Source: an uncultured Solirubrobacteraceae bacterium
GTDB lineage: Bacteria > Actinomycetota > Thermoleophilia > Solirubrobacterales > Solirubrobacteraceae
NCBI GenBank assembly: GCA_964588985.1
Contig: CAZPQW010000011.1
Coordinates: 32,001 to 96,000, forward strand
Length of the DNA stretch: 64,000 nucleotides
Direction of reading: 5' to 3'
Position 1 is the stretch's first letter. Each line of letters begins with the position of its first letter. The notes beneath the pieces were generated by a model. That model did not search any database, was not told the DNA's origin, and was given only the letters and a program-made list of their open reading frames with translations. A program made the position numbers and the translations under genes. This document shows positions 23,853-62,065 of this stretch, piece by piece.

Positions 23853-23904
23853 AACATCGCCAGCGAACCGCCGCTGCCAAAGTCAGCTGACTGCTAAACC
23901 TGTG

Positions 23905-28515: not shown

Positions 28516-28774
28516 CGCGCTCCACCCCCAAGTCGAGAGCCGTTTGGCAACAAGAACGATACGTGAAACTTCGATCGGTCGATAGATCGTTGGTCTGGAC
28601 AAAACTATCCCGACCAGCTGGCTGAGCCTTTCACATCCTGCGTATTACTGCTCGCATCTCGCATAGCGACAATGTTTACCGGGACATCCCGAACGTTTCT
28701 CACTGTTTATGAGTTGACAACCCATCAGGCGTGACCTATACAACGCGCGTCTGGCCGACGATCATCGCGCGTAC

Positions 28775-29164: not shown

Positions 29165-29814
29165 CGCTCCCCTTCGCCGCGGATCTCGGATCGACGACTC
29201 GGCCGTCCACGATCGATGACGGCCCGACGATCGTCGGCGAGGAGCAGGAGCTGCTCGATCTGCAGACCCAGCTGCTGCTCGCCGATCGCACCCATCCGGT
29301 CGTGGCGCTCACTCTCGACGAAGAGGAGATCGACGCCGCCGTCCTTTGGCTCGAGGAGATTCGCCCGATCGTCGGCCCGGACACGCGCGTCTACTTCGTC
29401 GAGGAACCTCTGTTGAGCCTCCTGCGCGAGGGACTCGGACGCAAGCTCGCACTGACACCCGGCTCGGCGCGGATCTGGTGGCCGGGGCTCTCCACGCGCA
29501 GCGATCCCGGCGACCACCCACTCGTGCTGGCGCTCGAGGGCGAGAGCCGCGTGGACGTGCTCGCTGAGCTCGCTCGCCAGTTCGACCTCAGCCGCCCGCA
29601 CGTCCGCCGCGAGCTCAAGCTCATCGAGGATGCTCGAGCGCTGGCTGAACACCGTCTCGCCGAGATCGTCGAGCAGGACCAGAGGACGGCGGAGCGCCTG
29701 CGCGACGCCCACCGCGAACGCCACCGTGAAGCGACCCGCGCACAGGCAGCCGAGGCTCGGCTGAACGATGCGCTCAAGCGGCTCGCGGAGTGCGACTGCG
29801 AAGAGTCGGCCTAG
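29161..29814 (+). CDS. Hypothetical protein (alpha/beta domain plus C-terminal coiled coil)
   Basis: ATGA overlap with the HTH gene; R..PVV.LT, GSARIWWPG....DP..HPL, heptad-rich C-terminus. Confidence 0.7.
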   Translation: MTLPFAADLGSTTRPSTIDDGPTIVGEEQELLDLQTQLLLADRTHPVVALTLDEEEIDAAVLWLEEIRPIVGPDTRVYFVEEPLLSLLREGLGRKLALTPGSARIWWPGLSTRSDPGDHPLVLALEGESRVDVLAELARQFDLSRPHVRRELKLIEDARALAEHRLAEIVEQDQRTAERLRDAHRERHREATRAQAAEARLNDALKRLAECDCEESA

Positions 29815-30611
29815 GGGACCAGCTCGACCCCGAGCGCGCTCGCCAGCGTCGCGAGGCCCTCGACCACGTCTCCGTCGAAGCGCACGCTCGCGATCTCGTC
29901 CAGCGGCGTGGTGCCCTGGGTGAGGATCGCCACCGATCCACCCCTCGCCCTGGTCAACAGCGGCAGCCCCGCCACGGGATGGACCTCCAGCGAGGAGCCG
30001 ATGCACAGCAGCACGTCAGCGCCTTTGCACAGCTCGCGCGCACGCCCCAGCGAGCGCTCGTCGAGCATCTCGCCGAACAGCACCACATCGGGCTTCAGCG
30101 GGCCGTCGCACGCCTCGCAGCGCGGCACGCCGTCGGGGTCTTCGGCCAGCCGAGTACGCACCTCCTCGAGCCCGATGCGCCCGCCGCAGACGGGGCAGGA
30201 GCACGTGGCGATGCTCCCGTGCACCTCCACCAGCTCACGTGTGCCGGCGACACGGTGGAGCATGTCGATGTTCTGCGTGATCACGCCGTCGAGCATGCCC
30301 CGCTCCTCGAGCGCAACGAGCACACGGTGCGCGCCGTTGGGCTGCTTACCCCCGAGCGTCGCGAAGCGTTCGCCGTAGAAGCGCCAGAAGCGCACCGGGT
30401 CGCCGCGGAATGCCTCGATGTGCGCCACCTCCATCGGGTTCACGTTCTCCCACAGCCCCGTCCGCGGGGTGCGGAAGTCGGGGATCCCCGACGGGACCGA
30501 GATGCCCGCCCCGGTCAGCGCTACGACCGAGCGGGCGCCTTCGATCAGCTCGGCGAGCGTCTGGATCGCCGGGCGCACGCCGAGAGCGGCCGGTAGGCCG
30601 CCCCTACCCAA
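29811..30611 (-). CDS. cobB: Sir2-family NAD-dependent protein deacylase
   Basis: LTGAGISVPSGIPDFR, PN.AH, ITQNID.LH, HGS, two CxxC, KPDVVLFGE, GSSL.V.P; start may be GTG 30578. Confidence 0.93.
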   Translation of the reverse strand: MGRGGLPAALGVRPAIQTLAELIEGARSVVALTGAGISVPSGIPDFRTPRTGLWENVNPMEVAHIEAFRGDPVRFWRFYGERFATLGGKQPNGAHRVLVALEERGMLDGVITQNIDMLHRVAGTRELVEVHGSIATCSCPVCGGRIGLEEVRTRLAEDPDGVPRCEACDGPLKPDVVLFGEMLDERSLGRARELCKGADVLLCIGSSLEVHPVAGLPLLTRARGGSVAILTQGTTPLDEIASVRFDGDVVEGLATLASALGVELVP

Positions 30612-30614
30612 CTC

Positions 30615-32621
30615 TCACTCGCCCTTGAAGCTCGGCGCGCGTTTGCCGAGGAACGCGGAGATGCCCTCCTTGGCGTCCGCGCTCGCGAACACCGCGGCGA
30701 ACGCACGCTTCTCGTCCTCGACGCCCTGGTCTAGATCGCCGGCCCCTGAGACGCTCTTGATCTGCGCCACCGCGAGCGGCGCCTGCCCGGCGAGCTTGCG
30801 CGCCCACTGCAGCGCGGTGTCGAGCAGTTCGTGGTCCTCAACCAGGCGGTTCACCAACCCGAGCTCGAATGCTTCATCGGCCAGGATCGGATCGCCGACG
30901 AGGTTCATCTCGAGCGCCTTGTTCGTGCCAACCAGGCGTGGCAGACGCTGGGTGCCGCCGAAGCCGGGGATGATCCCCAGCTTGATCTCCGGCTGGCCGA
31001 AGATCGCCGAGCGCGCCGCGATCCGCACGTCGCACGCCATCGCGAGCTCGCAGCCGCCGCCGAACGCGAGGCCGTTGACCGCCGCGATCGTCACGACCCC
31101 GTCCTCGCCGAGCTCTTTGAAGAGCGCGTGCGCGGAGTGGATCAGCTGCTCGCCCGCTGATTCGTCCATCGTCGTGAACGCCTTGATGTCGGCGCCCGCG
31201 CAGTAGAGGAACGGGTTCGAGGAGGCGATCACCAGCGCGTGCACGCCTGAGCTCTTGACCTTGCTCCAGACCTTGCCCAGGTCCTCCACCACCTGCGGGG
31301 AGATCGAGTTCATCTGGCCGTTCGCCAGCCACGCGATCGCCACGCCGTCGGCGCGCGTCTCTAGCTTGACGACCTCGGCCGGCTGCTCGGCGTCCGGCTG
31401 CGGGTAGGCGTAGAAGCCCTGGCCGCTCTTCTGGCCGAGGCGTCCCTGAGCGACGAGACGGCGCAGGATCGTCGGCGGCATGAAGCGCTCGCCGTAGCGC
31501 TCCTGCGCGTTCTCCATCCGCTCGAGGACCGTGTCGAGGCCCTCGACGTCGGCCTTCATGAACGGCGGCATCAACCCTCTGCGAGGGTCCAGGCCGGCGC
31601 CGGCCATCATCCCGAAGTCGATGTCGCGGTGGGTCGCGACGCCCTCCTCGAGCACCAGGCACGCCTCGATCAGTGTCTTCAGCGACAGCATCTCCACCAG
31701 CTCCGCCACGTTCGGCTCGTTGTCGCCCGAGATGTTCGGCTCGCCCTGTGCGTTGTAGAAGCCATCGCCGCCGGTCTTCGCGCCGAGCTTGCCGTCGGCC
31801 ACGAGCTTCTGCATGCCCTTGGGCACGTAGAAGCGTTCCTCGCCGTAGGACTCGACGAGGTGCTCGGCGACGTGCAGCACCGTGTCCAGGCCGAGCAGGT
31901 TCACCAGGTAGTAGGGGCCGATCGGCACCACGCCCGCGGCTCCGACGCCCTCGTCGATCGCTTTGATCGACAGGCCCTTCTCCTCCTGCTCGCGCCACAC
32001 CTCCGAGATCCCCGAGTTGAGGATGCGGTTGACGACGAAGCCCGGGACCTCGGCACAGGTGATCGGCTGCTTGCGGATCGCCTGCGCGAACGTGATCGCC
32101 GCGCTGACAGTCTCGGCGGAGGTTTCCTCGCCCTCGACGATCTCGATCAGCGGCATGATCGACGCGGGGTAGAAGTAGTGGAAGCCCACGACCTTCTCCG
32201 GGCGCAGCGTCGCTTCGCCCATCTCCGTGATCGACAGCGAGGAGGTGTTCGACGCGAGGATCGCGTGGCCGGGGGTGGCCGCGTCGAGCTCCGCGAACAC
32301 GCTCTGCTTTATGTCCATCCGCTCGGGGACCGCCTCGACGACGAAGTCCACGTCGCCGAAGGCCTCATACGAGGTCGTCCCGTGGATCCGCCCCATGACC
32401 GCGTCGATCTGCTCCTGCGCCTGCTCGGCGGTGATCTTGCCCTTCTCGACGAGCTTGTTGATCTGCCCGCTGGTGACGTTGCGGGCCTCGTCGAGGCCCG
32501 CCTGCACGAGTGCGTCGTCGATGTCCTTCAACACCACCGGCGTTCCGGAGGCGGCGATCGTCTGGGCGATCTGCCCGCCCATTGTTCCCGCCCCGACGAC
32601 GGCGGCCTTGAAGACGAACAT
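30615..32621 (-). CDS. 3-hydroxyacyl-CoA dehydrogenase / enoyl-CoA hydratase fusion (HADH N-terminal, crotonase C-terminal)
   Basis: VVGAGTMGGQIA, VVEAVPE, ASNTSSLSI, PGFVVNR, LG.KSG.GFY, then CAGADI, GGGCELA, GQPEI.LGIIPG.GGTQRL; start ATG 32621. Confidence 0.92.
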   Translation of the reverse strand: MFVFKAAVVGAGTMGGQIAQTIAASGTPVVLKDIDDALVQAGLDEARNVTSGQINKLVEKGKITAEQAQEQIDAVMGRIHGTTSYEAFGDVDFVVEAVPERMDIKQSVFAELDAATPGHAILASNTSSLSITEMGEATLRPEKVVGFHYFYPASIMPLIEIVEGEETSAETVSAAITFAQAIRKQPITCAEVPGFVVNRILNSGISEVWREQEEKGLSIKAIDEGVGAAGVVPIGPYYLVNLLGLDTVLHVAEHLVESYGEERFYVPKGMQKLVADGKLGAKTGGDGFYNAQGEPNISGDNEPNVAELVEMLSLKTLIEACLVLEEGVATHRDIDFGMMAGAGLDPRRGLMPPFMKADVEGLDTVLERMENAQERYGERFMPPTILRRLVAQGRLGQKSGQGFYAYPQPDAEQPAEVVKLETRADGVAIAWLANGQMNSISPQVVEDLGKVWSKVKSSGVHALVIASSNPFLYCAGADIKAFTTMDESAGEQLIHSAHALFKELGEDGVVTIAAVNGLAFGGGCELAMACDVRIAARSAIFGQPEIKLGIIPGFGGTQRLPRLVGTNKALEMNLVGDPILADEAFELGLVNRLVEDHELLDTALQWARKLAGQAPLAVAQIKSVSGAGDLDQGVEDEKRAFAAVFASADAKEGISAFLGKRAPSFKGE

Positions 32622-33793
32622 CAGGCGGGAACCGCCGTCGGCTCCTCGGCACGTCGTGGCAGCAGCGTTTCGCGCGCGATCACCAGCCGCTGGATCTGCG
32701 AGGTGCCCTCGTACAGCTGCATGATCTTCGCGTCGCGGAACAGCTTCTCCACGGGGTACTCCTTGATGAAGCCGTAGCCGCCGTACACCTGCACCGCGTC
32801 CGTCGCGATCTTCATCGCCGCGTCCGCGGCGAAGCGCTTCGCGTGCGAGGAGACCAGCGTGTTGCGTTCGCCGTTGTCGAGCATCGTCGCCGACTTCCAC
32901 GTCAGCAGCCGCGCTGCCTCGATTTCGGTCGCCATGTCGGCGATCATGAACTGGATCGCCTGGTGCATCGCGATCGGCACGCCGAACTGGACGCGTTCGC
33001 GCGAGTAGTCGACCGCGAACTCGAACGCCGCGCGAGCGATGCCGGTGGCCATCGCCGCGACACCCGGGCGGGTGCGGTCGAGCGTCATCATCGCCAGTTT
33101 GAAGCCCTTGTTTTCCTCGCCCAGCAGGTTCTCGGCGGGGACCTCGACATCGTTGAAGGAGATCGTCGCGGTGTTCGACGCGCGCTGCCCGAGCTTGTCC
33201 TCCTTCTTGTCCACGACCACGCCCCAGTCGCGCTCGACCACGAACGCCGAGATGCCACGGTGGCCGGCGTCCTTGTCGGTCTTCGCGTAGACGGTGTAGT
33301 AGTCGGCGTAGCCGCCGTTGGTGATGAAGCACTTGGAGCCGTTGATGACGTACTTGTCGCCCTTCTTCACGGCCGTTGTGCGCATGCCGGAGACGTCGGA
33401 GCCGGCGTCCGGCTCGGTCAGGCAGAACGAAGCGAGCTTGGGCGCTTCGGTGAGCATGCCGAGGTACTTCTTCTTGATCTCCTCGGAGCCGCCCAGCGCG
33501 ATCGGCGCGGTGGCCAGGCCGTTGCAGCCGAGCGAGGTCTGGATCCCCGAGCAGCCCCACGAGAGCTCCTCCTCGATCAGGCAGCCATCGAGGTAGCCGG
33601 CGCCGGCTCCGCCGTAGGCCTCCTCGATGTGGGAGTTCATCAGTCCCACCTCCCACGCTTTCTCGACCAGGTCCTGCGGCCACGTGCCGTCCTTGTCGTA
33701 CTCCCAGGCTACGGGGCGTATCTCCTTGACGGCGAAGTCGTGCGCCATCTCGCGCAGGTTCTTCTGCTCGTCTGTGAGCGTGAAATCGACCAT
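32621..33793 (-). CDS. Acyl-CoA dehydrogenase
   Basis: FCLTEPDAGSD, NGSKCFITNG, KEDKLGQR, R.QFG.PI..QAIQF.IADM, YGGYGF..EYPVEK.FRDAK..LYEGTSQIQ. Confidence 0.96.
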   Translation of the reverse strand: MVDFTLTDEQKNLREMAHDFAVKEIRPVAWEYDKDGTWPQDLVEKAWEVGLMNSHIEEAYGGAGAGYLDGCLIEEELSWGCSGIQTSLGCNGLATAPIALGGSEEIKKKYLGMLTEAPKLASFCLTEPDAGSDVSGMRTTAVKKGDKYVINGSKCFITNGGYADYYTVYAKTDKDAGHRGISAFVVERDWGVVVDKKEDKLGQRASNTATISFNDVEVPAENLLGEENKGFKLAMMTLDRTRPGVAAMATGIARAAFEFAVDYSRERVQFGVPIAMHQAIQFMIADMATEIEAARLLTWKSATMLDNGERNTLVSSHAKRFAADAAMKIATDAVQVYGGYGFIKEYPVEKLFRDAKIMQLYEGTSQIQRLVIARETLLPRRAEEPTAVPA

Positions 33794-33840
33794 TCTCAGA
33801 TCTCCTTACGGGCTGGCGCGTGAAAGTGGCGCGGGACATA

Positions 33841-46038: not shown

Positions 46039-47106
46039 TCAGAGCGGCCAGTGGCAAGCGAGCTTCGCGACGGCGCGCTCCACCAGCGATCCCGGATCGT
46101 CCGACGACGGCTCGAACGTCGCCTCGCGCGGCTGCCCCTCGCCCGCGAGAGCCGGCAGCGTCGCGCAGACGCACTCGGCCAGCACGCGCCGGTTGTAGCC
46201 GCCCTCCAACACCACCCCAAGCGGGATGCCCGAGGCGAGCGCCATATCGCGCACGCGCATCGCCATCTCCGGGAAGGAGCGCGTCTCCAGGGCGCAGTCG
46301 GCCAACGGGTCCTCGACGTGCGCGTCGAAGCCCGCGGAGACGAGCACGAGCTCGGGCTCGAACGCGACCGCCGAGGGCAGGATCACGCGCTCCAGCAGCG
46401 CGAGCCACAGCGGCTCGCGCGAGCCCGCGGGCACCGGCAGGTTGATCGTGTAGCCCTCTCCCGGACCCGAGCCAACGTCGTCGAGCGGGCCGCTCCCGGG
46501 AAACAGCCCCTGCTGGTGGATGCTCGCGAACAGCACGTCGTCGCGCTCGCGAAATATCTCCCCGGTGCCGTTGCCGTGGTGCACGTCCCAGTCGAGCACG
46601 AACACCCTGCTCAATCCCAGATCGGCGATCGCCGAGGCAGCCGCGACGGCGACGTTGTCGAACAGGCAGAAGCCCATCGCGCGCTCACGCTCGGCGTGGT
46701 GACCCGACGGCCGGACCGCGCAGAACCCCACACGCGCCTCTTCGGCCAGGAGCGCGCGCGTCATCTCGCACGCACCACCGGCTGCATGCAGCGCCGCGCG
46801 AAACGACTCTTCGCCGACGAACGTATCGGGGTCGATCGCGCCGCCGCCGGCCGCGCACAGATCCATGATCGAGCTCACGTGTCGCGCGGAGTGCACCAGC
46901 TGCAGTTGCTCGACGCTCGCGGCGGGCGCCTCGCGCCGCTCCCACCCCAGCCAGTCACGCTCCGCGAGTGCCCGTTCGAGCGCGATCAGACGCTCCGGCG
47001 TGTCGGGATGCATTGGCGAGTGCACGCGCGGGTCGTGCTCGAGGCACGCCGGATGGCTGAAGTACAGGCCCGGGCTGACGAGGGGCCTCTCCGATTCGCG
47101 ATCCAC
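46039..47106 (-). CDS. Histone deacetylase family protein (Zn-dependent amidohydrolase)
   Basis: HPDTPERL, RPSGHHA, GFC.FDNVAVA, LDWDVHHGNGT, SAGFDAH..DPL, LEGGY; start GTG 47106. Confidence 0.93.
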   Translation of the reverse strand: MDRESERPLVSPGLYFSHPACLEHDPRVHSPMHPDTPERLIALERALAERDWLGWERREAPAASVEQLQLVHSARHVSSIMDLCAAGGGAIDPDTFVGEESFRAALHAAGGACEMTRALLAEEARVGFCAVRPSGHHAERERAMGFCLFDNVAVAAASAIADLGLSRVFVLDWDVHHGNGTGEIFRERDDVLFASIHQQGLFPGSGPLDDVGSGPGEGYTINLPVPAGSREPLWLALLERVILPSAVAFEPELVLVSAGFDAHVEDPLADCALETRSFPEMAMRVRDMALASGIPLGVVLEGGYNRRVLAECVCATLPALAGEGQPREATFEPSSDDPGSLVERAVAKLACHWPL

Positions 47107-47264
47107 CGTCTCAATATGGCGTAATCGGACACGCTCTGCGCGCGCTCCTGGTCGTGAGCGCGGCGCAGGGCTCGACCCAACGGTGACTACCTGTCGGAAC
47201 AGTTCGGTAGGCGCCCTCGCGGTGATGTATCTTCCACGTACCATTTCCTGAGACGAGGAAGCGA

Positions 47265-47852
47265 ATGGCAAGCGTAAGTCCGGAGAAGACTAAGTGGATG
47301 CGGGGGGCATCGACGCCGCTGCGAGGCGCGCTGCTCGGCCTGCTGCTCGAACGCCCGGGCCACGGAGGAGATCTGGCCAACCGGCTGGCCGCACGGCTGG
47401 GCGAGACGTGGCGCGTCGACACGAACGACGTCTACCGCCTGCTCGAGCAGCTCGAGCGCACAGGCCTCGCGAGCTCGCGCGACGAGCCCAAGCGCAGCAA
47501 CCAGCGACGGACGCATCTCGTGTACCACCCAACGGAGGAGACCTCCGAGGCTCTCACGACGTGGATGGAAACGCTGCTGCCGCGAGAGCCGGTGCGACTT
47601 GGCCTGCAGGCCAAGCTGTCTGTCGCGCGACCACAGGACGCGCCACGCCTGCTGATCGCGCTGCGAGCCTACGAGCGCGAGTGCTTGGTCCTCGCTCAGC
47701 TGGTCTGTCCCTCGGACTTCTATGCACGCTCGTGGGCGGCGCTGTGCATGGAGTGCACGCGCGACGCCGTCTACGCGCAACTGCAGACGGAAGTGGATTG
47801 GGCGACGCGGACCCGACAGCGGATCAACGAGTTCCTGGAACACAACTCGTAG
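47265..47852 (+). CDS. PadR family transcriptional regulator, copy 2
   Basis: LRGALLGLL.ERP.HG.DL, W......VYRLLEQLE..GL, PVR..LQAK, YEREC, LQTEVDW; paralog of 27913-28515. Confidence 0.88.
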   Translation: MASVSPEKTKWMRGASTPLRGALLGLLLERPGHGGDLANRLAARLGETWRVDTNDVYRLLEQLERTGLASSRDEPKRSNQRRTHLVYHPTEETSEALTTWMETLLPREPVRLGLQAKLSVARPQDAPRLLIALRAYERECLVLAQLVCPSDFYARSWAALCMECTRDAVYAQLQTEVDWATRTRQRINEFLEHNS

Positions 47853-47865
47853 GGCTAACGGTGCG

Positions 47866-48615
47866 ATGACGCCGCTGCTCTCATTCCTGAACGTGACCAA
47901 GCGCTACCCGGACGGCGGGCGGGAGATCCTCGTCCTCGACCGCGTCTCGCTCGACATCGAGCCCGGCGCGTCGGTCGGCGTTTACGGCTCCCGCCGCTCC
48001 GGCAAGTCCACGCTGCTGCGCATGGCCGCCGGAGTCGCCTCGCCGGACTCGGGATCGGTCAGCTTCGACGGCCACGACATGGCGGACATGACCTCCGCGC
48101 AGCGAGGCCGACTGCTGCGCGGAGCGATCGCGTTCATGTGCGCGGACGACTGGCTCGCGAACCCCGGCGAGAGCATCGCCGACCACGTCGCCACCTCGCT
48201 CGGCAGTCAGGGACTGACGATGCGCGAAGCCAGGCATAAGGCGCTGCGGATCCTCGACCACGTCGACATCGACGAGAAGGCCTCCGAGAAGATGACCGTG
48301 TCGCTGTCACTGACCGAACGCACGCGGGTGATGCTCGCGCGAGCACTTGCCCGAGAGCCGCGCCTGCTGGTGCTCGACGAACCGGCGGCGATGCCCAGCC
48401 CCGGCGACCGCGGCAAGTTCCATGAACTGCTGCGCTCGGTGGCGAGGGAGCGTGGCATGGCGCTGCTCGTCGCCTCTGAGGAAATGGCGGCACTGAGCGG
48501 CTTCGACGTGCTGATGTCGATCTCCGAAGGCGAACTGTGCTCGACCGACGAGCGAGGCATGCTCGCACGCCTGCCGAAACCCCCACTGCCCGACCCGGAG
48601 CCATCGACACCGTGA
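47866..48615 (+). CDS. Degenerate ABC ATP-binding protein, copy 2
   Basis: GSRRSGKS Walker A, no Q-loop Gln, LSLTE signature, LDEP, and ASEE in place of the H-loop; start ATG 47866. Confidence 0.88.
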   Translation: MTPLLSFLNVTKRYPDGGREILVLDRVSLDIEPGASVGVYGSRRSGKSTLLRMAAGVASPDSGSVSFDGHDMADMTSAQRGRLLRGAIAFMCADDWLANPGESIADHVATSLGSQGLTMREARHKALRILDHVDIDEKASEKMTVSLSLTERTRVMLARALAREPRLLVLDEPAAMPSPGDRGKFHELLRSVARERGMALLVASEEMAALSGFDVLMSISEGELCSTDERGMLARLPKPPLPDPEPSTP

Positions 48616-49316
48616 GCACGCTCGAATTGCGCGAGGTCAGCAAGCACTACGCCACCAGCGTGGAGACCGTCACGGCCGTGGACCGGGTCTCGCTGTCGGT
48701 TTCCAGCGGGGAGTTCGTGGCGCTCTACGGCCCGAGCGGATCGGGCAAGACGACGCTGCTGATGCTGGCGGCCGGCCTCACTCCGCCGGACGACGGCAGC
48801 GTGCTGTTCGACGGGCAGAACGTGGGCGCGCTGTCCGAGCGCGACAGTGCTCTCTACCGTCGTCGGGATGTGGGCTTCGTCTTTCAGTCCTTCCACCTGA
48901 TGCCCCATACGTCAGCGCTCGACAACGCCACGATCAAGCTCACCGGCAGCGGCTACACCCTGCGCGAGGCGCGCACGCAGGCCCTGCCGTGGCTCGAGCG
49001 CGTCGGCTTGGCGGCGCGCTCGGAACACACGCCGGAGCAGCTCTCGATGGGTGAGCGACAGCGGGTCGCGATCGCCCGTGCCCTCGTCAGCGATCCGCGA
49101 CTGCTGCTGGCGGACGAGCCGACCGGCAATCTCGACTCCAAGCGCAGCCAGGAGATACTCGGGTTGATGCGCGACGTCTGCCACGAACGCTCGATTCCCG
49201 GAGTGCTCGTCACTCACGACCTCGAAGCCACACGGTTCGTCGATCGCGTGTACACGCTGCGCGACGGACAACTGATCGACGGGATGGATTCAGAGCTGGC
49301 AGCGACCTCCTCGTGA
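48612..49316 (+). CDS. ABC transporter ATP-binding protein, LolD/MacB type, copy 2
   Basis: [44 protein letters not shown]; start GTG 48612. Confidence 0.93.
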
Positions 49317-51928
49317 GCGGGAGTCCGCGCCCCCGCTTCGCGGGGGTACGCCTCAGCATGCAGGTCCATCTCTATCGAGTTCGACTGCGCTCCCATGGGG
49401 TCCAGGAGCTGCTCGCCGCCAGCGGCATCGCGATCGGGGTCGCGCTGGTGCTAGGAGTGCTCGTTGCGAACACGAGCTTGACGAGCTCGGCGGCCGAGCT
49501 GCTCCACAGGGTCATCGGCTCTGCCCGCATCCAGCTCGCGGCACGCTCCTCCAGCGGGTTCGACATGAGGCTGGCGAGCACGAGCGAGCATCTCGCGGGG
49601 GTGCGGGTCGCTGCGCCGGTGCTCCGACAGAACATCGCGATGGTCGGCCCGCGTGGCCGTCAATCGGTGCAACTGCTGGGCGTGACGCCCGCGGTGGCGC
49701 TGTTGAATGGCCTGGGCGGACAGGACTCAAGCCGGGCCTCCGGCCTGGCCGGCATCCGTGTAGCCGGCGGACTCGCCTCCGGCCTAGAGGCGATCGGCGT
49801 CGGCGGCGGACTGATCCTGCCGTCGAGCGTCGCCGTCGCCACAGGCGCGAAGGTCGGTGGGCAGGTAACGGTCTTTGCTCGCGGATACGCGAGCCGCATC
49901 AGGGTCGCGGCTGTGCTGAGCGACTCCAAGGTCGGTGCGCTCGCATCCAGCCCGATCGCGATCACACAGCTACCCGTAGCGCAGCGCCTCACAGGGCTCA
50001 AAGGTCGTGTGACGCAGGTTTACTACGAGCCGCTGCGGGGCGCGGATCGCCTACTGGCCGGCGAGCTGCGCACCCTCGCCGCTGGACGGCTGGACGTCCT
50101 GCCGGCCGACAACGAACTGCGCCTGCTCGATCAAGCCGCGAAGCCCAACGACCAGTCGACGTCGCTGTTCGCGGCGATCAGCGTGATGGTCGGCTTCCTG
50201 CTGGCCGTCAACGCGATGCTGCTAACCGTGCCGGAGCGTCGGCGCTTCGTCGCGGATCTGCGCATGCAGGGATACGACTGGCGCCAGATCCTCGCGCTGC
50301 TCGCCTTTCAGGCGATCGTCCTCGGCCTCTTCGCCTCGGCTGTCGGCGTACTGCTCGGTGACCTGCTCGCCCACGCCTCCTTCCACAGCATTCCCTCCTA
50401 TCTGACGACCGCGTTCCCGATCGGCAGCCAGGAGATCCTGCACGCGGAAACGGTGCTCCTGGCGCTGGGATGCGGTGTGGTCGCGACGATCCTCGTCTCG
50501 GTCTCCCCCGTCTTCGACCTGCGCCCCAACCGCCCCACAGACGCCATCTTCCGGGATCGCTCCGGCGGCAACGAGGTCCTCACGCGGCGCACCACCCTGA
50601 AGCTCGCGCTCGTCGGTGTCGGCCTCGCGAGCCTGATCACGGCACTCGTCCTGGTGGAAGCGAGCTTGACGGTCCTGGGCGGCGTGGCTCTCGCGGTGAC
50701 GACTCTCTGCGCGCTCCCGATCGCGTTCGCGGTGGTCTCCCGGGCGCTGCGATGGATCGGCGAGCGTGCTCGCAGCAGCGCACTGATCGTCGTCGTGTCG
50801 GAGCTGCGTGCGGTCACCACTCGTTCGGTGGCGCTCGCGGGCATCGCGGCGCTCGCGGTCTACGGGAGTGTCGCGATCGGAGGAGCTCGTGCCGATCTCG
50901 TCCGCGGCCTGGAGATCAACTTCAACGAATATCTCCAATCGGCAGATGTGTGGGTGACGACCGGCGGGAACGACCCCGGGATCACCAACAGCTTTCACGA
51001 AGAAGGCGAGACCGCGGCTATCGCGCGCGTCGCGGGCGTCGTATCGGCACGCACCTACCACGGCGGGTTTCTCGACGTCGGGGCGCGTCGGATATGGATC
51101 ATCGCGAGATCCCCCGCGGACGGCAGCCCGATCCCGGCCACCCAGATGGAGCAGGGAAGCCTCACGAATGCCACGCGACTGTTGCGCGGGACGGGATGGG
51201 CGACCGTGCCGGACGGCTTTGCCCAGGAACACCACCTCGGCATCGATCAATCCTTCTCACTGCCGACACCGACCGGACAGGCGCACCTGCGCGTCGCAGC
51301 GATCACGACGAACCTGGGATGGCCTCCCGGTGGTGTGGTCGTGAGCGCCGCCGACTACAGCCGCTACTGGCAGCATGAAGATCCAACCGCGATCGAGGTC
51401 AACTTCAAGCCAGGGATTCCCGCCTCGATCGCCAGACTCGCGGTGGCGCGAGCGCTCGGCAACCGTCCAGGGCTGACAGTCCAAAGCTTCCCGGAACGTA
51501 GCGCCGAATACGCGCAAGCCTCACGTCAGGGACTTCAGGCTCTCAGCGAGATCGCGAGCCTGCTGTTGATTGCCGCGGCCCTCGCGGTCGCGTCGGCGTT
51601 GAGCGCCGCGATCTGGCAGCGGCGCGCTCGACTCGCGTCGCTGAAGATCCAGGGCTACGACACCAAACAGCTCTGGCGGGCACTGCTGCTCGAGAGCACT
51701 CTCGTGCTCGGCGTGGGCTGCTCGATCGGAGCGGTCGCGGGCGTCTACGGCCACGCGCTCGCAAGCCGCTGGCTGCGGCTGACGACCGGCTCTCCTGCGC
51801 CATTCGCGGTGGACGTGAAGGAAGTGACGATCACGCTCGCGTCGCTCGCGGCGATCGCACTGGCCGTGATCGCGGTACCCGGACTTGCGGCCGCGCGTGC
51901 ACCAGCGCGTACGAGTCTTCAGGAGTAA
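49313..51928 (+). CDS. FtsX/MacB-type ABC transporter permease, copy 2
   Basis: QELLAASGIAIGVAL, ERRRFVADLR.QG, QRR.RLASLK.QG, ends ARTSLQE (copy 1 ends AQTSFQE). Confidence 0.9.
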   Translation: MSGSPRPRFAGVRLSMQVHLYRVRLRSHGVQELLAASGIAIGVALVLGVLVANTSLTSSAAELLHRVIGSARIQLAARSSSGFDMRLASTSEHLAGVRVAAPVLRQNIAMVGPRGRQSVQLLGVTPAVALLNGLGGQDSSRASGLAGIRVAGGLASGLEAIGVGGGLILPSSVAVATGAKVGGQVTVFARGYASRIRVAAVLSDSKVGALASSPIAITQLPVAQRLTGLKGRVTQVYYEPLRGADRLLAGELRTLAAGRLDVLPADNELRLLDQAAKPNDQSTSLFAAISVMVGFLLAVNAMLLTVPERRRFVADLRMQGYDWRQILALLAFQAIVLGLFASAVGVLLGDLLAHASFHSIPSYLTTAFPIGSQEILHAETVLLALGCGVVATILVSVSPVFDLRPNRPTDAIFRDRSGGNEVLTRRTTLKLALVGVGLASLITALVLVEASLTVLGGVALAVTTLCALPIAFAVVSRALRWIGERARSSALIVVVSELRAVTTRSVALAGIAALAVYGSVAIGGARADLVRGLEINFNEYLQSADVWVTTGGNDPGITNSFHEEGETAAIARVAGVVSARTYHGGFLDVGARRIWIIARSPADGSPIPATQMEQGSLTNATRLLRGTGWATVPDGFAQEHHLGIDQSFSLPTPTGQAHLRVAAITTNLGWPPGGVVVSAADYSRYWQHEDPTAIEVNFKPGIPASIARLAVARALGNRPGLTVQSFPERSAEYAQASRQGLQALSEIASLLLIAAALAVASALSAAIWQRRARLASLKIQGYDTKQLWRALLLESTLVLGVGCSIGAVAGVYGHALASRWLRLTTGSPAPFAVDVKEVTITLASLAAIALAVIAVPGLAAARAPARTSLQE

Positions 51929-51966
51929 ATGTGTAGTAACCGATACCGCAGGCCGAAACTGTTCCT

Positions 51967-53073
51967 GTGGCCGGCTACCCCAGGAGTCGATTAGGTCTGG
52001 CCAGAGCGTTTTCGGGCGCAGCCGCAAAGTATTGGCTCGAGATCTTCCCCCAGGTCAAACGCGAGCTGCGCCACTGGCATCGACAAGCGCTTCGAATCCC
52101 GGACCCGGGACTGCGACGCCAAGCCCTGGCCACCCAACATGCCGAGCGTGGCAATCTCGACGGGGCTGCGGCGTTCGCCGTGCTCGCACCCCGCGCCCAC
52201 CGGGCGCAGGTGGTGCGCGCCAGCATCGCGTTCCAAATCGCCTACGAATACGTCGACTCGCTCGCCGAGGAGCCCAACAGCGACCCGCTGGCGAATGGCG
52301 AGCGGCTTCACCTGGCGCTGCTCGCGGCGCTCGATCCACACATCGAGCAGCCCGACTACTACGAGTTCCATGCGGGCAAATGCGACAACGGCTACATCAC
52401 ATACCTCGTCGGCACCTGCAGAGAGGCACTCGCCACGCTCCCGTCCTACGACACAGTGGCAGACGATGCGCTGCGGGCCGCGCGACGCATGGCCGCCTAC
52501 CAGAGCCTCAACCACGATCCTCGCGGAGAGGTCATGGCGCTCGCGCGGTGGGCCTCGGACCTGACGCCCACTGGAACTGGACTGCGCTGGTGGGAGACGG
52601 CAGCCGGCGCGGCTTCCTCGCTCACCCTCCTTCCTCTCATCGCGGCAGCCGCACAGCCCGCGCTCGACGCAAGTGAGGCCAGCGCGATGGACAGCGCCTA
52701 CTTCCCATGGATTGGCTCCCTCAACCAGTTGCTCGACAGCCTGATCGACCAGGCCGCGGATCGCGAGGCCGGCCATCACAGCCTCGTCGATCACTACGTG
52801 TCGATCGAGGAAATGGCTGCACGCCTCGGCTCGATCGCGACCCGCGCCATGCAGGCCACCGAGTCGATATCCGGGAGCATCCAGCATGCGCTGATCCTCG
52901 CGGCGATGAGTAGCTACTACCTCTCGGCGCCAGGAGCGCTGACTCCCAGCGCGAGAGTCGTGGCGCGACATGTGCTGGATGCCATGGGTGCGTTGGCGAA
53001 GCCCACGATGCTCATCCTGCGCATGCGACGCGAGGCCGGTCGGCTTCTCACCGACCCGATCGTCGACAGTTAG
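51967..53073 (+). CDS. DUF2600 / YtpB-like (class IB terpene synthase family) protein, copy 2
   Basis: IFP.V.RELRHW..QA..IPDP.LR.QAL, FQIAYEYVDSLAE, DNGY, WWETAAGAASSL, AYFPWIG.L..LLDSLIDQ..D. Confidence 0.82.
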   Translation: MAGYPRSRLGLARAFSGAAAKYWLEIFPQVKRELRHWHRQALRIPDPGLRRQALATQHAERGNLDGAAAFAVLAPRAHRAQVVRASIAFQIAYEYVDSLAEEPNSDPLANGERLHLALLAALDPHIEQPDYYEFHAGKCDNGYITYLVGTCREALATLPSYDTVADDALRAARRMAAYQSLNHDPRGEVMALARWASDLTPTGTGLRWWETAAGAASSLTLLPLIAAAAQPALDASEASAMDSAYFPWIGSLNQLLDSLIDQAADREAGHHSLVDHYVSIEEMAARLGSIATRAMQATESISGSIQHALILAAMSSYYLSAPGALTPSARVVARHVLDAMGALAKPTMLILRMRREAGRLLTDPIVDS

Positions 53074-53242
53074 AAAACGGCCTCTTAGACGATTCGCCAT
53101 AAGTTACTCGAGAGTCAAGTATTGGACTTTCCCCTTGTCGCGGATTCGCACCATCGACATGATCATAGGTGCGTGACACTGGATCGAAACGCTGTCCTTC
53201 TGCGTATCCAAGTCCAGATTCCCGCTCTCGTCTCGCCAGTGA

Positions 53243-53273
53243 GTGAGCCGGGCGTCCCTGGCGTCCGGCTCAC
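53243..53273 (+). other. Strong RNA hairpin upstream of the IclR-type HTH gene
   Basis: GTGAGCCGGGCGTC-CCT-GGCGTCCGGCTCAC: 14-bp stem including two G-U pairs, followed by GTTT. Confidence 0.5.
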
Positions 53274-53297
53274 GTTTGATCGCACGATCGGGTCTCA

Positions 53298-53660
53298 GTG
53301 ACAGACGACAATTCAATCTCGATAGAGCTCACCAGCAAGCAGATCGACCGCATCATCCGCGGCGCGTCGTCGCGGGACTTCGCGTCCAACCTGATGCGTG
53401 GGCTGGCGGACAGTCAGGCGCCGCCGCCGGACTTCGAAGCGCTCTCCGAGAGCCCCCGCCTGTCGCGCTCGCTACTGCTCGGCCTGCTCGTGCTGGCGTG
53501 CTTCCCAACGGACGGGAGCACCGTGGCGGTGACCCAGATCGCGGCGCGCTTGGGGATGAGCGCGAGCACGACGCACCGCTACATGACCACGCTCCTGGCG
53601 GTGGGCCTGCTCGAACAGGACTCGCGCACCCGTCGCTACCGGCTGCCGGTCGACGACTGA
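53298..53660 (+). CDS. Small IclR-type HTH protein without effector-binding domain, copy 2
   Basis: IELT..QIDR..RGAS N-module; SRSLL.GL.VLACFPTDG..AVTQIAARLGMSASTTHRYMTTLL.VGLLEQD..TRRYRL. Confidence 0.82.
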   Translation: MTDDNSISIELTSKQIDRIIRGASSRDFASNLMRGLADSQAPPPDFEALSESPRLSRSLLLGLLVLACFPTDGSTVAVTQIAARLGMSASTTHRYMTTLLAVGLLEQDSRTRRYRLPVDD

Positions 53661-60610: not shown

Positions 60611-60836
60611 GCATACACTAGACATCACCACCTCAGAAAAGATCGGACAACGCGTACGCGAGGAGCGGGGCCGCCAGGGCATCGATCAACGGACGCTCGC
60701 CATGGTCGCCAGCGTCGGGGTCCGCTCCGTCCACCGCGTCGAGCACGGCGAGCCTACTGTGCGACTGGACGTGGTGACCCGGATCCTTGCGGCGCTGGGC
60801 TTGCGCCTGGAGGTACACGGCCACGGTGAGACATGA
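60609..60836 (+). CDS. hipB: HipB-like XRE/HTH antitoxin
   Basis: IG..VR..R...GIDQ..LA..A.VG...V..VE.G..TVRL..V..IL.ALGL; ATGA overlap with hipA. Confidence 0.85.
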   Translation: MHTLDITTSEKIGQRVREERGRQGIDQRTLAMVASVGVRSVHRVEHGEPTVRLDVVTRILAALGLRLEVHGHGET

Positions 60837-62065
60837 GTCTCGGCGTCTACTGGGATGAGCAAGAGATCGGGAGGCTCGAGCGCGTGGACGAGCGGTCCCG
60901 TGAGTATTCCTTCCGCTACACGCAACGGTCCCGCGCGATCTCACTGTCGCTGCCGCTGAGCCAGGAAGACTTCACTCCCGCGGAGAGCCGTCCGTTCTTC
61001 GAGGCCCTGCTGCCCGAGGGGGCAGTGCGCGAACAGATCGCAAGTCAACTCAAGCTTGCGACGAGTGACTCGTTTGGCCTGCTCGCGGAGTTGGGGCGCG
61101 ACTGCGCCGGTGCGCTGCAGATCGTCGACAACAGGCGGACGTCAGACCAGCCATCGGTGCGCTGGCTCGACGAAAGCGAGCTGGACGAGCTGGTCGAAGA
61201 TCTTCCACGGCACCCCCTTGGGATCCAACGCGAAGATGAGCGCCTCCGCCTCAGCCTCGCCGGCGTGCAGCACAAGGCCGTGCTCGTCCGCGATGAGCAG
61301 CACCGCTTCGGGAAGCCGCTCGACGGCATGCCCAGCAGCCACATCCTCAAGCCAGAGCTGCCCGGCAGCGAATACCCAGGACTGGCTACGAACGAGTACT
61401 TCTGCATGCGTCTGGCAGCACGGTGCGGACTGTCGGCGGCCGGCGTCGAGCTGATCACGGCAGCCGGCCGTCCGTGCCTGGTGGTCGAGCGATTCGACCG
61501 CGAGCAACTGACGTGGCCGCATCGTCGCATACACCAGGAGGATCTCTGTCAGGCGCTGGGGCTGACTCCCGACTTCAAGTACCAGAAGGAGGGATGGCGG
61601 CTGCCCTCCTACCGCGCGCTTGCCGGTCTGCTGGACCAGCACGGCCCGTGGCCGGGCCTGGATCGCCTCGCCGGCGCGCAGGCCGCCGTCTTTCACTATC
61701 TGGTCGGCAATGCAGATGCGCACGCCAAGAACATCTCGCTGGTGCATGTGCGAGACGGAGTCCGGCTGGCGCCGCTCTACGACGTGGTCTCCACCGCCGC
61801 CTACCCCGACCTCAGCACAGAGCTGGCGCTGAGCATCGGCGACGAGTTGGACCCTGACGCCATCACCTCGATTCACTGGTCAGACCTCGCCAACGACTTC
61901 GGCCTCAACACAGGAGGGTTCGAGCGCGTGCGCCGAGAGCTCCTCGACCGCGTAACCGTCGAGGCACCCCGTCTACGTGACGAGGCGCGGGCCAAGAACT
62001 GGTATCAGCCCTCGATCGACAACATCATCTCCGTGATCGCGGCCCGAGGGGCGCGAGCTGTGTAA
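60833..62065 (+). CDS. hipA: HipA family Ser/Thr kinase toxin
   Basis: F.Y...ISLSLPL, FF..LLPEG..R, GRDCAGAL, SLAGVQHK, SHILKP, NEYFCM.LA, VERFDR, HQED.CQ, GNADAHAKN.S, LAPLYD. Confidence 0.95.
   Translation: MSLGVYWDEQEIGRLERVDERSREYSFRYTQRSRAISLSLPLSQEDFTPAESRPFFEALLPEGAVREQIASQLKLATSDSFGLLAELGRDCAGALQIVDNRRTSDQPSVRWLDESELDELVEDLPRHPLGIQREDERLRLSLAGVQHKAVLVRDEQHRFGKPLDGMPSSHILKPELPGSEYPGLATNEYFCMRLAARCGLSAAGVELITAAGRPCLVVERFDREQLTWPHRRIHQEDLCQALGLTPDFKYQKEGWRLPSYRALAGLLDQHGPWPGLDRLAGAQAAVFHYLVGNADAHAKNISLVHVRDGVRLAPLYDVVSTAAYPDLSTELALSIGDELDPDAITSIHWSDLANDFGLNTGGFERVRRELLDRVTVEAPRLRDEARAKNWYQPSIDNIISVIAARGARAV

Follow-up and report, generated by a model that had tools for sequence, protein, structure and literature searches.

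A view of type VII ABC transporters is emerging in which they are machines for drawing lipids out of membranes, and Firmicutes genomes carry several paralogous regulator-transporter modules of the Bce type. Class IB terpene synthases are, to our knowledge, known from a handful of Bacillus enzymes. Type VII transporters are reported to be usually paired with an extracytoplasmic partner, and for YbbP together with TesA the removal of hydrophobic molecules from the membrane has been proposed (PMC12646458). In the class IB enzyme BalTS of B. alcalophilus, six motif Asp residues are described as essential, with mutation of any one abolishing activity, while the general class I motif DDxx(D,E) permits Glu at its last position (PMC5939612). 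The related DUF2600 gene of B. subtilis, ytpB, belongs to a sigma-M, cell-wall-stress-induced operon; its loss is reported to cause bacitracin sensitivity via the accumulation of heptaprenyl diphosphate, and the competitor target was proposed to be BceAB (bioRxiv 10.1101/2024.01.17.576085; PMC7038271). It has been suggested that PadR regulators take the place of two-component systems in envelope-stress circuits, and in the HAAS-PadR dyads a PadR-type winged helix-turn-helix (wHTH) is proposed to be controlled by contact with a membrane-associated partner, in some instances one fused to FtsX/MacB-type domains (PMC11237479).

Two loci, here termed modules A and B, lie within the window, i.e. the whole stretch of 64,000 nucleotides from an uncultured Solirubrobacteraceae bacterium that was analysed. 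An operon comprising a class IB terpene synthase relative, an ABC transporter and a PadR regulator seems to be a combination that has not been described. The module joins a putative terpene synthase, a type VII transporter, a dedicated candidate repressor and an inactive-looking ATPase in one unit, which has been multiplied within a few soil and rhizosphere Solirubrobacterales lineages.

Two diverged modules in the window

Module B and its candidate control region comprise the following features:

47265-53660, + strand: module B as a whole, in the order PadR, ATP1, ATP2, permease, DUF2600 and then HTH
47193-47205, + strand: conserved upstream element GTCGGAACNNTTC, candidate operator/promoter, 60-72 nt before the PadR start
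47265-47852, + strand: PadR-family regulator, 195 aa (Pfam PF03551, 36.8 bits)
47866-48615, + strand: ATP1, degenerate ABC nucleotide-binding protein, 249 aa (Pfam ABC_tran, 85 bits)
48612-49316, + strand: ATP2, canonical LolD/MacB/YbbA-type ABC ATPase, 234 aa (ABC_tran, 121 bits)
49313-51928, + strand: permease, 871 aa (Pfam FtsX twice, and MacB_PCD)
51967-53073, + strand: DUF2600 protein, 368 aa (PF10776, 246 bits; cut-off 25)
53298-53660, + strand: stand-alone IclR-type wHTH protein, 120 aa (PF09339, 51 bits)

Module A lies in the opposite orientation:

22746-29164, - strand: module A as a whole, with the same five-gene order as B and the HTH gene on the + strand
28775-29164, + strand: IclR-type wHTH protein, 129 aa (PF09339, 47 bits), divergent and upstream of PadR
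27913-28518, - strand: PadR-family regulator, ~201 aa (PF03551, 33.7 bits); reading frame open to 28602
27173-27916, - strand: ATP1, degenerate ABC nucleotide-binding protein, 247 aa (ABC_tran, 71.5 bits)
26469-27176, - strand: ATP2, canonical ABC ATPase, 235 aa (ABC_tran, 118 bits)
23905-26472, - strand: double-FtsX permease, 855 aa (Pfam FtsX twice)
22746-23852, - strand: DUF2600 protein, 368 aa (PF10776, 228 bits)

All twelve reading frames are intact (12/12), and both PadR proteins score above the Pfam cut-off of 27 bits. The five core genes of both copies are linked by GTGA/ATGA overlaps or by gaps of 13-52 nt. In module B, the GTG start of ATP2 overlaps the stop of ATP1, the GTG start of the permease gene overlaps the stop of ATP2, and 38 nt separate the permease and DUF2600 genes. 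In module A, the start of ATP1 overlaps the stop of PadR (ATGA), further overlaps join ATP1 to ATP2 (GTGA) and ATP2 to the permease (ATGA), and DUF2600 follows after 52 nt. Two starts correct earlier coordinates, namely that of ATP1 in module B (47866, not 47722) and that of the permease in module A (26472, not 26799). The PadR start in module A was set by alignment to its counterpart in B and by a GGAG 6 nt upstream.

The preliminary description had reported the same gene order in both copies, which the Pfam matches bear out, and had listed diagnostic strings common to the paralogs, all seven of which (7/7) are found in the translations of both. Amino acid identity between A and B is 40% for PadR, 41% for ATP1, 68% for ATP2, 54% for the permease, 48% for the DUF2600 protein and 50% for the HTH protein. 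The two modules lie on one 105-kb contig, and the range of 40-68% rules out a recent duplication or an assembly artefact, in agreement with the preliminary description. For module B, this is reinforced by contigs from four other rhizosphere metagenome runs, none of them marked as a possible source of the sequence, which match it with 0 differing letters and span the PadR/ATP1, permease/DUF2600 and DUF2600/HTH junctions. A recent duplication is furthermore contradicted by B orthologues in other species, with DUF2600 identities of 60-65%. The surroundings of module B are conserved, with the PFK gene recurring in 20, the HDAC gene in 13 and a kinase/regulator pair in 8 other loci. This flanking synteny, together with a GC content like that of the rest of the window, rules out a mobile island. 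The kinase and regulator pair 3′ of module B is itself a matter of local synteny, being found only in the 8 B-orthologue loci.

The module family and its inheritance

The suggestion that the genome may carry a family of such modules was upheld by a genome-wide count of five full modules. In addition, a locus on contig 1, a close subfamily member, lacks DUF2600, and contig 22 harbors an ATP2-permease pair. The absence of DUF2600 from these two units suggests that the transporter can work without the enzyme. All five genomic DUF2600 copies pass the PF10776 cut-off. Among 101 genomes of the family sample, DUF2600 was found in five, and the same five hold close permease homologues; DUF2600 was found in 0 of 400 other genomes of the phylum. 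Wherever one of the five core genes occurs in a genome, the others are present as well. The number of modules per genome is five here and nine, eight, two and one in relatives. In the four related genomes (G041, G071, G081 and G083), ATP1, ATP2 and permease genes are adjacent at all 20 of the 20 DUF2600 loci, with DUF2600 inverted in six. A further 49 loci were obtained from metagenome-assembled genomes (MAGs). These comprise 29 of the PadR type, nine with DUF2600, ATP2 and permease but without PadR or ATP1, ten with DUF2600 alone and one too short to judge. The persisting pair is therefore that of enzyme and transporter.

Trees of the five core genes, which had been proposed as a check, proved congruent over 29 modules. 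Pairs of trees share 9-16 of 26 splits, and their Robinson-Foulds distances are 20-34, where the lowest values in 500 label shuffles were 46-48. Mantel correlations between core genes range from 0.52 to 0.87 (shuffle maximum: 0.31), with the highest value for DUF2600 against permease. This agreement, part of which is owed to the common species history of orthologues, indicates that the modules duplicate and are inherited as whole units. Modules A and B and the copy on contig 20 form one subfamily, which predates the species splits. A DUF2600 clade that nests next to the one of module A is stand-alone and adjoins a DNA methylase gene, suggesting that the enzyme can also work without the transporter. 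At one locus (L054), a P450 gene adjoins a stand-alone DUF2600 gene; P450 genes are common beside terpene synthases.

Transporter and DUF2600 protein

The first ATPase had been described as degenerate, and the motif check agrees. ATP1 of module B retains Walker A (GSRRSGKS) and the Walker B DE, has the signature LSLTE, and is without the Q-loop Gln, the H-switch His and the D-loop; ATP1 of module A (GVRRSGKT; LSRVE) is without the Q-loop Gln and H-switch His. ATP2 of module B, by contrast, has the intact catalytic motifs of LolD/MacB/YbbA-type ATPases that ATP1 lacks (NCBIfam; LolD: 7.8e-62; YbbA: 3.3e-51), and 61/62 homologues have Walker A, Q-loop, Walker B, D-loop and H-switch all intact. 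The joint loss of Q-loop Gln, H-switch His, signature Gly and D-loop from ATP1 suggests that neither composite ATP1:ATP2 site would be canonical. Modules from which ATP1 is absent must run on ATP2 alone.

The permease of module B is predicted to have ten TM helices, two bundles of the FtsX type and two extracytoplasmic domains, each of ~220 aa (residues 52-284 and 525-746, from hydropathy and the model). The best fold match of its AlphaFold model (pLDDT 89, pTM 0.86) is E. coli YbbP (9ge6_A; e-value: 2.2e-20; TMq 0.62 and TMt 0.66 over 888 columns), at a sequence identity of 14%, with BceB, LolE/C, MacB and HrtB among the further matches. Among the five paralogues, the extracytoplasmic domains are 39-40% and the FtsX bundles 50-51% identical, values that discriminate between none of the readings considered below. 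The module thus resembles YbbAP in its single-chain permease with a ten-helix TM fold and two extracytoplasmic domains, and in the match of ATP2 to the YbbA family. A lipid-acting enzyme is likewise encoded beside the YbbAP transporter, whose proposed task is hydrophobic extraction (PMC12646458). It differs in that the adjoining enzyme is a cytoplasmic terpene synthase relative rather than a periplasmic esterase, and in that it has two different ATPases, one of them degenerate, where YbbA is a homodimer. PadR in the operon, five to nine paralogous copies per genome and a monoderm actinobacterial host set it apart further. Within the operon, no candidate for an extracytoplasmic partner protein was seen. 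The DUF2600 protein cannot fill this role, since hydropathy reveals no TM segment and there is no evident signal peptide. A Tat or Sec signal was considered and rejected, as the short stretch at the N-terminus corresponds to the first BalTS helix in the alignment.

On its Pfam and template matches, the DUF2600 protein of both modules is a class IB large-terpene synthase relative in which motif 2 keeps its Asp residues and motif 1 mostly keeps its acidic character. The protein of module B matches tetraprenyl-beta-curcumene synthase (PDB 5yo8; e-value: 3.4e-33), with residues 23-320 aligned to residues 18-315 of 5yo8_A. It shares with YtpB and BalTS the PF10776 domain, an alignment of ~300 residues and acidic motifs at the same positions (EYVDSLAE and DSLIDQAAD in B; DYADLLAE and DSLVDLGED in A). 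It differs from them in motif 1, which reads D/E-Y-x-D-x-L-x-E here, with the third Asp always Glu, and in motif 2, DSL(I/V)DxxxD, which lacks the Tyr and Glu of DY(F,L,W)IDxxED. Unlike ytpB, which is found with ytpA, the genes here share an operon with an ABC transporter, and unlike YtpB and BalTS the protein is multi-copy and limited to a small number of genera within a single actinobacterial family.

Regulation and proposed function

The conserved element upstream of PadR in module B emerged as a phylogenetic footprint over 22 aligned upstream regions. The window has a single exact occurrence of the pattern, and 13 of 99 loci carry it, in all 13 just upstream of a PadR gene of the B or contig-20 subfamily; it was not found before module A. 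Distinct specificities of the modules are thus plausible, since B and the contig-20 copy have the element in common and A does not. Scans of both modules for sigma-70 promoters returned no hits and those for intrinsic terminators gave counts within shuffle expectation, and among six PadR upstream regions only two weak inverted-repeat pairs were seen, at the contig-20 and contig-1 loci.

PadR lies immediately 5′ of ATP1 in 51 of the 53 assessable modules with ATP1, and in none of the ten without it. Structure prediction of a PadR-ATP1 complex gave a score of 0.41 (best of three controls: 0.00), in a range of up to 0.60 which held only 18 of 157 solved complexes and both of the mismatched pairs that passed, and as such lends weak support to an interaction. 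The mark applied was passed by 116/157 solved complexes and 2/215 mismatched pairs. At least 74% of contacts are common to the prediction runs, and the partner pLDDT is at least 82. On the basis of this association and of its lost catalytic motifs, ATP1 might serve in signalling, docked on the transporter and either retaining or setting free PadR, such that the state of the transporter would be passed on to transcription, although we consider this model unlikely. ATP1 would then have a part other than, or in addition to, that of a motor half, and an equally doubtful corollary is that the pair would be a one-component counterpart of BceAB-BceS flux sensing or of the HAAS-PadR dyads. The likeness to the latter lies in the co-occurrence of PadR with ATP1. 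No HAAS domain was found by Pfam, however, the putative partner would here be a degenerate ABC ATPase, and PadR, which has an N-terminal wHTH in module B, also has its own C-terminal domain of ~100 aa. If the model were true, the whole unit would be the first instance of a mechanistic coupling between a class IB terpene synthase and an ABC lipid extractor.

We tentatively favor, at somewhat below even confidence, a reading in which the module is an operon under PadR control whose products would synthesise a hydrocarbon from a polyprenyl precursor and extract it from the membrane. This is because of the operon packing, linkage, phyletic profile and co-divergence of its genes, the mostly acidic residues at the six DUF2600 motif positions that are essential in BalTS, the presence of polyprenyl synthases, the YbbP-like fold of the permease and the P450 gene at L054. 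PadR would repress its own operon via the subfamily-specific upstream element. Upon relief of repression, the DUF2600 enzyme would ionise a long-chain polyprenyl diphosphate at the cytoplasmic face, probably the C35 precursor of the menaquinone side chain or one of neighbouring chain length, for which two polyprenyl synthases encoded in the genome offer a possible supply. The very hydrophobic hydrocarbon product would partition into the membrane, where the type VII (mechanotransmission) transporter, powered by cytoplasmic ATP hydrolysis, would pull the lipid from the outer leaflet and pass it via the two extracytoplasmic domains so that it is set free or deposited in the envelope. A separate product would be handled by each paralogous module, and the small IclR-type HTH would be a lineage-specific extra regulator outside the core. 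Against this reading count the units in which transporter or enzyme genes occur singly, the Glu at the third Asp position of motif 1, the share of species history in the tree congruence and the result that no extracytoplasmic partner was seen in the operon. An enzyme that would make a lipid is here naturally paired with a candidate for its extraction, which is directly testable, and the family offers a diverged set of putative large-terpene synthases in which to look for new products, as well as a case in which signalling from transporter to repressor can be tested.

The main alternative, which we regard as possible but improbable, is a Bce-like unit for envelope defence, in which PadR would sense a membrane-active or lipid-carrier-binding antibiotic. 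The transporter might then free or shield the target lipid as BceAB does for undecaprenyl diphosphate, and the co-induced DUF2600 protein could remove free, drug-binding polyprenyl diphosphate or make a membrane-ordering terpenoid, steps that we hold to be no more probable than the unit itself. Coverage of several compounds by several paralogous modules carries the same doubt. The module resembles BceAB-BceRS in its FtsX-type ten-TM permease, BceB being the third-best fold match (8s5g_A; e-value: 2e-12), as well as in its hard-wired regulator and its several paralogues per genome. The DUF2600 and Bce-type transporter families are, moreover, functionally linked in B. subtilis through the reported genetic link with heptaprenyl diphosphate (bioRxiv 10.1101/2024.01.17.576085; PMC7038271), and PadR has been proposed in envelope-stress circuits with partners that include FtsX/MacB-type fusions (PMC11237479). 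However, accumulated heptaprenyl diphosphate is reported not to have inhibited BceAB (PMC7038271). The permease, furthermore, has two extracytoplasmic domains as in YbbP rather than the single one between TM7 and TM8 of BceB, and PadR takes the place of a two-component system; the module contains no Bce-type kinase or BceRS-type partner, the kinase pair after B being local synteny, and its operon has an additional degenerate ATPase and a terpene synthase relative. A housekeeping or membrane-ordering enzyme would not need a diverging copy for each transporter (33-48% identity among the DUF2600 paralogues), nor would it predict the DUF2600-permease distance correlation of 0.87. Were this alternative true, the module would be the first Bce-like antibiotic-defence type in this class of Actinomycetota, and an independent support for the disputed link between the polyprenyl diphosphate pool and the transporter. 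That the DUF2600 protein is no longer an enzyme, but a cytoplasmic lipid-binding or regulatory transporter subunit, appears very improbable. The BalTS motif DYLDNLxD is not literally kept, with position 1 Asp in 62, Asn in nine and Glu in one of 72 ungapped sequences (the protein of module B has Glu), position 4 Asp in 71 and Asn in one, and position 8 Glu in all 72, and BalTS itself is reported to be inactivated by mutation of any of its six Asp residues (PMC5939612). In the resulting pattern, D/N/E-x-x-D-x-x-x-E, the replacements are nevertheless acidic with few exceptions, Glu is tolerated at the last position of the class I motif, and the three Asp residues of motif 2 persist in 72, 74 and 74 of 74 sequences, with Tyr replaced by Ser and Glu variable. 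That acidic residues are conserved among proteins only 33-48% identical points to a metal-binding site that has been retained.

A six-part module, in which the IclR-type HTH gene is integral and co-inherited and only its position changed between the copies, had been implied by the preliminary description. The upstream-divergent position in A and the downstream position in B are as described there, but the HTH as a retained and repositioned part of the module found no support in that form. Its retention had been taken to argue for functional linkage, yet an HTH gene adjoins only 1 of 20 modules in the four related genomes and is missing from the contig-20 module of this genome. We therefore rate the six-part module as decidedly unlikely, even though, of the six HTH-family genes in the genome, four are no more than ~300 nt from a module (adjoining 4/5 modules), where modules make up ~1% of the genome, and the gene is found just 3′ of DUF2600 in 19 of the 29 PadR-type MAG loci. 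In the HTH tree, the protein of A groups with those of contigs 4 and 10 (support 97/88 and 91/84) and not with that of B, unlike in the module trees. An AU test of the module topology was borderline and does not formally reject an A+B grouping (p 0.055), and the incongruence is thus suggested, not proven. The HTH gene is monocistronic, lying 224 nt 3′ of DUF2600 in module B, where a histidine kinase gene is convergent with it; a convergent gene is also next in contigs 4 and 10. The recognition helix is nearly invariant across the family (1358 homologues, ~119 aa), which does not suggest module-specific tuning, and no shared DNA 12-mer was found in the regions around four HTH genes. As such, the HTH gives the impression of an accessory regulator taken up in a single lineage, an add-on outside the core. 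The proteins of A and B are IclR-type HTH proteins and not full IclR regulators of ~250 aa, which combine an N-terminal HTH_IclR with a C-terminal effector-binding domain; only the wHTH is present, at the C-terminus. In the model of the module B protein, the wHTH (residues 55-118) is predicted at pLDDT 86-92 and the N-terminus poorly, and the fold matches are IclR N-terminal domains. The HTH of module A is 59% identical to that of the contig-4 module.

Organization of the two modules

The window (bases 32001-96000 of contig 11; 65-72% GC per 2-kb bin) derives from a 3.41 Mb genome in 48 contigs and harbors two copies of a gene module, A and B. All of the elements claimed for them in the preliminary description were found by Pfam in each copy, namely a PadR-type regulator, a degenerate (ATP1) and a canonical (ATP2) ABC ATPase, a double-FtsX permease, a DUF2600 protein and a small IclR-type helix-turn-helix (HTH) protein, and every string said to be common to the paralogs was found in their translations.

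Genes of modules A and B (position in the window, strand, Pfam-based identity)
22746-23852, -, module A DUF2600 protein
23905-26472, -, module A permease
26469-27176, -, module A ATPase ATP2
27173-27916, -, module A ATPase ATP1
27913-28518, -, module A PadR
28775-29164, +, module A HTH_IclR, divergent
47265-47852, +, module B PadR
47866-48615, +, module B ABC ATPase ATP1
48612-49316, +, module B ABC ATPase ATP2
49313-51928, +, module B double-FtsX permease
51967-53073, +, module B DUF2600 protein
53298-53660, +, module B HTH_IclR

The A and B products share 40% (PadR), 41% (ATP1), 68% (ATP2), 54% (permease), 48% (DUF2600) and 50% (HTH) identity. From PadR to DUF2600 the genes of both modules are joined by GTGA/ATGA overlaps or separated by 13-52 nt, and the module B HTH gene lies 224 nt beyond DUF2600. 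Module B shows no differing letters (0) against contigs from four other rhizosphere metagenome runs, with three junctions bridged. In all four runs, the summed contig depth increases by a factor of 5 to 40 across the ATP2 signature and Walker B region (49079-49309), evidently reflecting the many ABC ATPase genes of other organisms that match at 95% likeness.

Alignment of the regions upstream of module B and 21 orthologues revealed a conserved block that reads TGTCGGAAC-N2-TTCGG and precedes GTATTGTCC. Within the window, GTCGGAACNNTTC has a single exact match (47193-47205), and the count at up to one mismatch is likewise one, which does not exceed chance over the whole window. Among 99 loci, all exact matches (13/13) are located ~60-70 nt 5′ of a PadR gene of the module B or contig-20 subfamily, while no element of the GTCGGAACNNTTC type is found at module A.

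A protein-deacetylase-type gene is located on the PadR side of both modules, a histone-deacetylase-family gene divergent from the module B PadR gene (46039-47271, -) and a Sir2-family gene past the module A HTH gene (29811-30611, -), which probably represents synteny or chance. The window also encodes a 1074-aa fusion of 3-hydroxyacyl-CoA dehydrogenase and enoyl-CoA hydratase domains (30615-33839, -), the N-terminal ~400 residues of which yield no Pfam match, and a HipA-like kinase of the toxin-antitoxin type with HipA_C and Couple_hipA domains (60833-62065, +).

Copy number, distribution and co-inheritance

The proposed genome-wide family of modules was borne out by tblastn and ORF annotation: each of the five DUF2600 copies in the source genome ends a PadR-ATP1-ATP2-permease array (contigs 10, 20, 4 and, twice, 11), giving five full modules. 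An ATP2-permease pair is furthermore found on contig 22, and contig 1 carries a PadR-ATP1-ATP2-permease array that lacks DUF2600 (L010, 3030-7734). The ATP1 of the latter has a canonical Walker A (GPSGSGKT), DA as Walker B and no H-switch His, a pattern of degeneration that differs from that of the DUF2600-linked copies.

DUF2600 genes were detected in 5/101 genomes sampled from the same GTDB family (5, 2, 9, 8 and 1 matches), and close permease homologues (E <= 1e-60) occur in exactly these five; one same-genus genome, 97% complete, contains neither. Of 401 genomes sampled across the phylum, the window's own alone carries DUF2600 (absent from the other 400), and 38/301 phylum genomes contain distant double-FtsX permeases (20-28% identity), a tally that takes in three flagged as unpublished (G101, G147 and G322) and used for no other result. 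In four related genomes, ATP1-ATP2-permease genes adjoin DUF2600 in 20/20 loci, with PadR detected in 18 and DUF2600 collinear in 14 and inverted in six. The 49 named MAG loci comprise 29 of the PadR type (two cut by contig ends and two with fragmented permease and DUF2600 frames), nine type II loci with DUF2600-ATP2-permease but neither PadR nor ATP1, ten with DUF2600 alone and one too short for classing. Permease and/or DUF2600 frames are broken into several ORFs in L037, L041, L050, L058 and L060, which represent either pseudogenes or long-read assembly indel errors.

Maximum-likelihood trees (LG+G4, careful search) were constructed for PadR, ATP1, ATP2, permease and DUF2600 from 29 modules (five from the source genome, 18 from the four related genomes and six MAG loci picked across the diversity), modules without any one of these core genes being excluded. 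These per-gene phylogenies, proposed in the preliminary description as a check on co-evolution, are congruent and recover the same major groups: the ten tree pairs have 9-16 of 26 splits in common, Robinson-Foulds distances of 20-34 where none of 500 label shuffles fell below 46-48, and Mantel correlations of 0.52-0.87 (shuffled labels reaching 0.31 at most), the highest (0.87) being that between DUF2600 and permease. Part of this congruence is due to the common species history of the orthologues. In all five trees, modules A, B and that of contig 20 form one subfamily with single members from the related genomes G083 and G041, while the contig-10 and contig-4 modules represent two further subfamilies, each with related-genome orthologues. 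Orthologues of module B are 60-65% identical to it in DUF2600 and have conserved surroundings (PFK at 20 loci, an HDAC-family gene at 13 and a kinase/regulator pair at eight), which argues that the A/B split is older than the species carrying them, in agreement with the claim that the duplication is not recent. The same synteny rules out a mobile island as the origin of module B.

ATPase subunits and regulators

ATP2 retains Walker A, the Q-loop Gln, the DE of Walker B, the D-loop and the H-switch His in 61/62 sequences, with the signature LS(M/G)GE (62 sequences). In the 53 ATP1 sequences, Walker A reads G-x-R-R-S-G-(K 39, R 12)-(S/T)-T, the Walker B Asp and Glu are present in 52 and 45, respectively, the Q-loop Gln and H-switch His are absent, the D-loop is lost and the second signature Gly is retained in only 6/53. 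As the losses all fall in one subunit, neither site of an ATP1:ATP2 dimer assembled head to tail would be fully canonical. The ATP1-less modules (the nine type II loci and contig 22) encode a permease of the same kind and must depend on ATP2 alone.

PadR is encoded directly 5′ of ATP1 in 51/53 assessable ATP1 modules and in 0/10 of those without ATP1. Complex prediction with custom 31-row alignments lent weak support to an ATP1-PadR complex, with a score of 0.41 (best of three controls: 0.00), in a range, <=0.60, where the passing predictions comprise only 18/157 solved complexes plus both passing mismatches, the mark overall being passed by 116/157 solved complexes and 2/215 mismatched pairs. 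The runs share >=74% of contacts, with partner pLDDT >=82. The predicted contact is a lead rather than a finding; it parallels the control via membrane-linked partner proteins proposed for PadR-type regulators in the available text of PMC11237479.

The small HTH protein is real, with 1358 homologues, mostly ~119 aa in length and many 63-89% identical, and a recognition helix nearly invariant across the family. Its model comprises a C-terminal winged HTH (pLDDT 86-92) and a poorly predicted N-terminus; the only fold matches are N-terminal domains of IclR proteins (best E 4.5e-4), and the IclR effector domain is absent. The gene is monocistronic, with a convergent gene next in module B, contig 4 and contig 10. 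It had been described as a retained, repositioned module part, and it indeed adjoins 4/5 modules in the source genome and 19/29 PadR-type MAG loci (counting L033, a longer protein grouping with a 289-aa paralogue), but only 1/20 in the four related genomes; we regard it as an accessory regulator specific to one lineage. In the HTH tree, the upstream-divergent copies of module A and contig 4 pair (97/88) and are joined by that of contig 10 (91/84), while the module B copy clusters with its orthologues. Since the AU test against the module topology gave p 0.055, this apparent conflict with the module trees is only suggestive. Just ahead of the module B HTH start (53245-53285), GTGAGCCGG...CCGGCTCAC form a GC-rich inverted repeat with GTTTGATC behind it; the terminator scan made no call there.

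Permease, DUF2600 enzyme and putative role

Hydropathy places ten TM helices in the permease and assigns residues 52-284 and 525-746 to extracytoplasmic domains. By sequence alone it matches only LolC and MacB, weakly. Its AlphaFold model (37 sequences; pLDDT 89, pTM 0.86) is closest in fold to E. coli YbbP (9ge6_A; E 2.2e-20; TM 0.62/0.66; 14% identity), followed by BceB, LolE/C, MacB and HrtB. The available text of PMC12646458 describes YbbAP-TesA as pulling hydrophobic compounds out of the membrane on behalf of its attached hydrolase, and an extracytoplasmic partner as typical of type VII systems.

The module B DUF2600 protein matches the class IB large-terpene synthase of B. alcalophilus (BalTS, 5yo8; E 3.4e-33), and the names assigned automatically in databases are either 'DUF2600 family protein' or 'tetraprenyl-beta-curcumene synthase'. 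Across 72 ungapped sequences of this clade, motif 1 has the form (D 62, N 9, E 1)-Y-x-(D 71)-x-L-x-(E 72), the Glu at the first position being that of module B alone, and motif 2 is (D 72)-S-L-(I/V)-(D 74)-x-x-x-(D 74) in 74. Hydropathy indicates no TM segment in the DUF2600 proteins, bar one weak segment in that of module A. The source genome encodes two polyprenyl synthases as well as one homologue of squalene-hopene cyclase. The menaquinones of Solirubrobacterales are of the MK-7 type, for which heptaprenyl diphosphate would be made.

The operon structure, identical phyletic profile, joint retention in three gene arrangements and co-divergence indicate that enzyme and transporter are linked. 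Tentatively, we consider it most likely that the transporter handles the enzyme's product: the DUF2600 synthase would make a membrane-bound polyprenyl hydrocarbon, the type VII extractor would take it out and PadR would gate the operon. This is preferred mainly because each transporter retains its own diverging enzyme, a feature less well explained by a Bce-like defence system. Such a system, which we consider less likely, is favoured by the multi-paralogue pattern and by the link between B. subtilis ytpB, heptaprenyl diphosphate and BceAB in the available text of two sources (bioRxiv 10.1101/2024.01.17.576085; PMC7038271). Putative action of a type VII transporter on a membrane isoprenoid is common to both models. 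No earlier description of the module was found among the matches listed from open-access articles, supplements aside, and the tetraprenyl-beta-curcumene synthase papers among them contained nothing on actinobacterial modules by title or abstract.

On a 71-sequence DUF2600 tree, gene context switches at least five times, two of the switches stemming from fragmented frames, and the main stand-alone clade nests beside the module A enzyme. An N6/N4 DNA methylase gene precedes, and overlaps, the stand-alone gene in 3/3 Pfam-scanned loci of this clade (L032, 9019-9846; L034, 9016-9846; L059, 9121-10002), and is split in L032. A P450-TetR pair is located 3-4 kb upstream of the stand-alone gene in L032 and L059. 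In L054, from a Conexibacteraceae MAG, a P450 gene (8389-9825, -) is divergent from the adjoining stand-alone DUF2600 gene (9938-10993, +), a pairing classic for terpene synthases.
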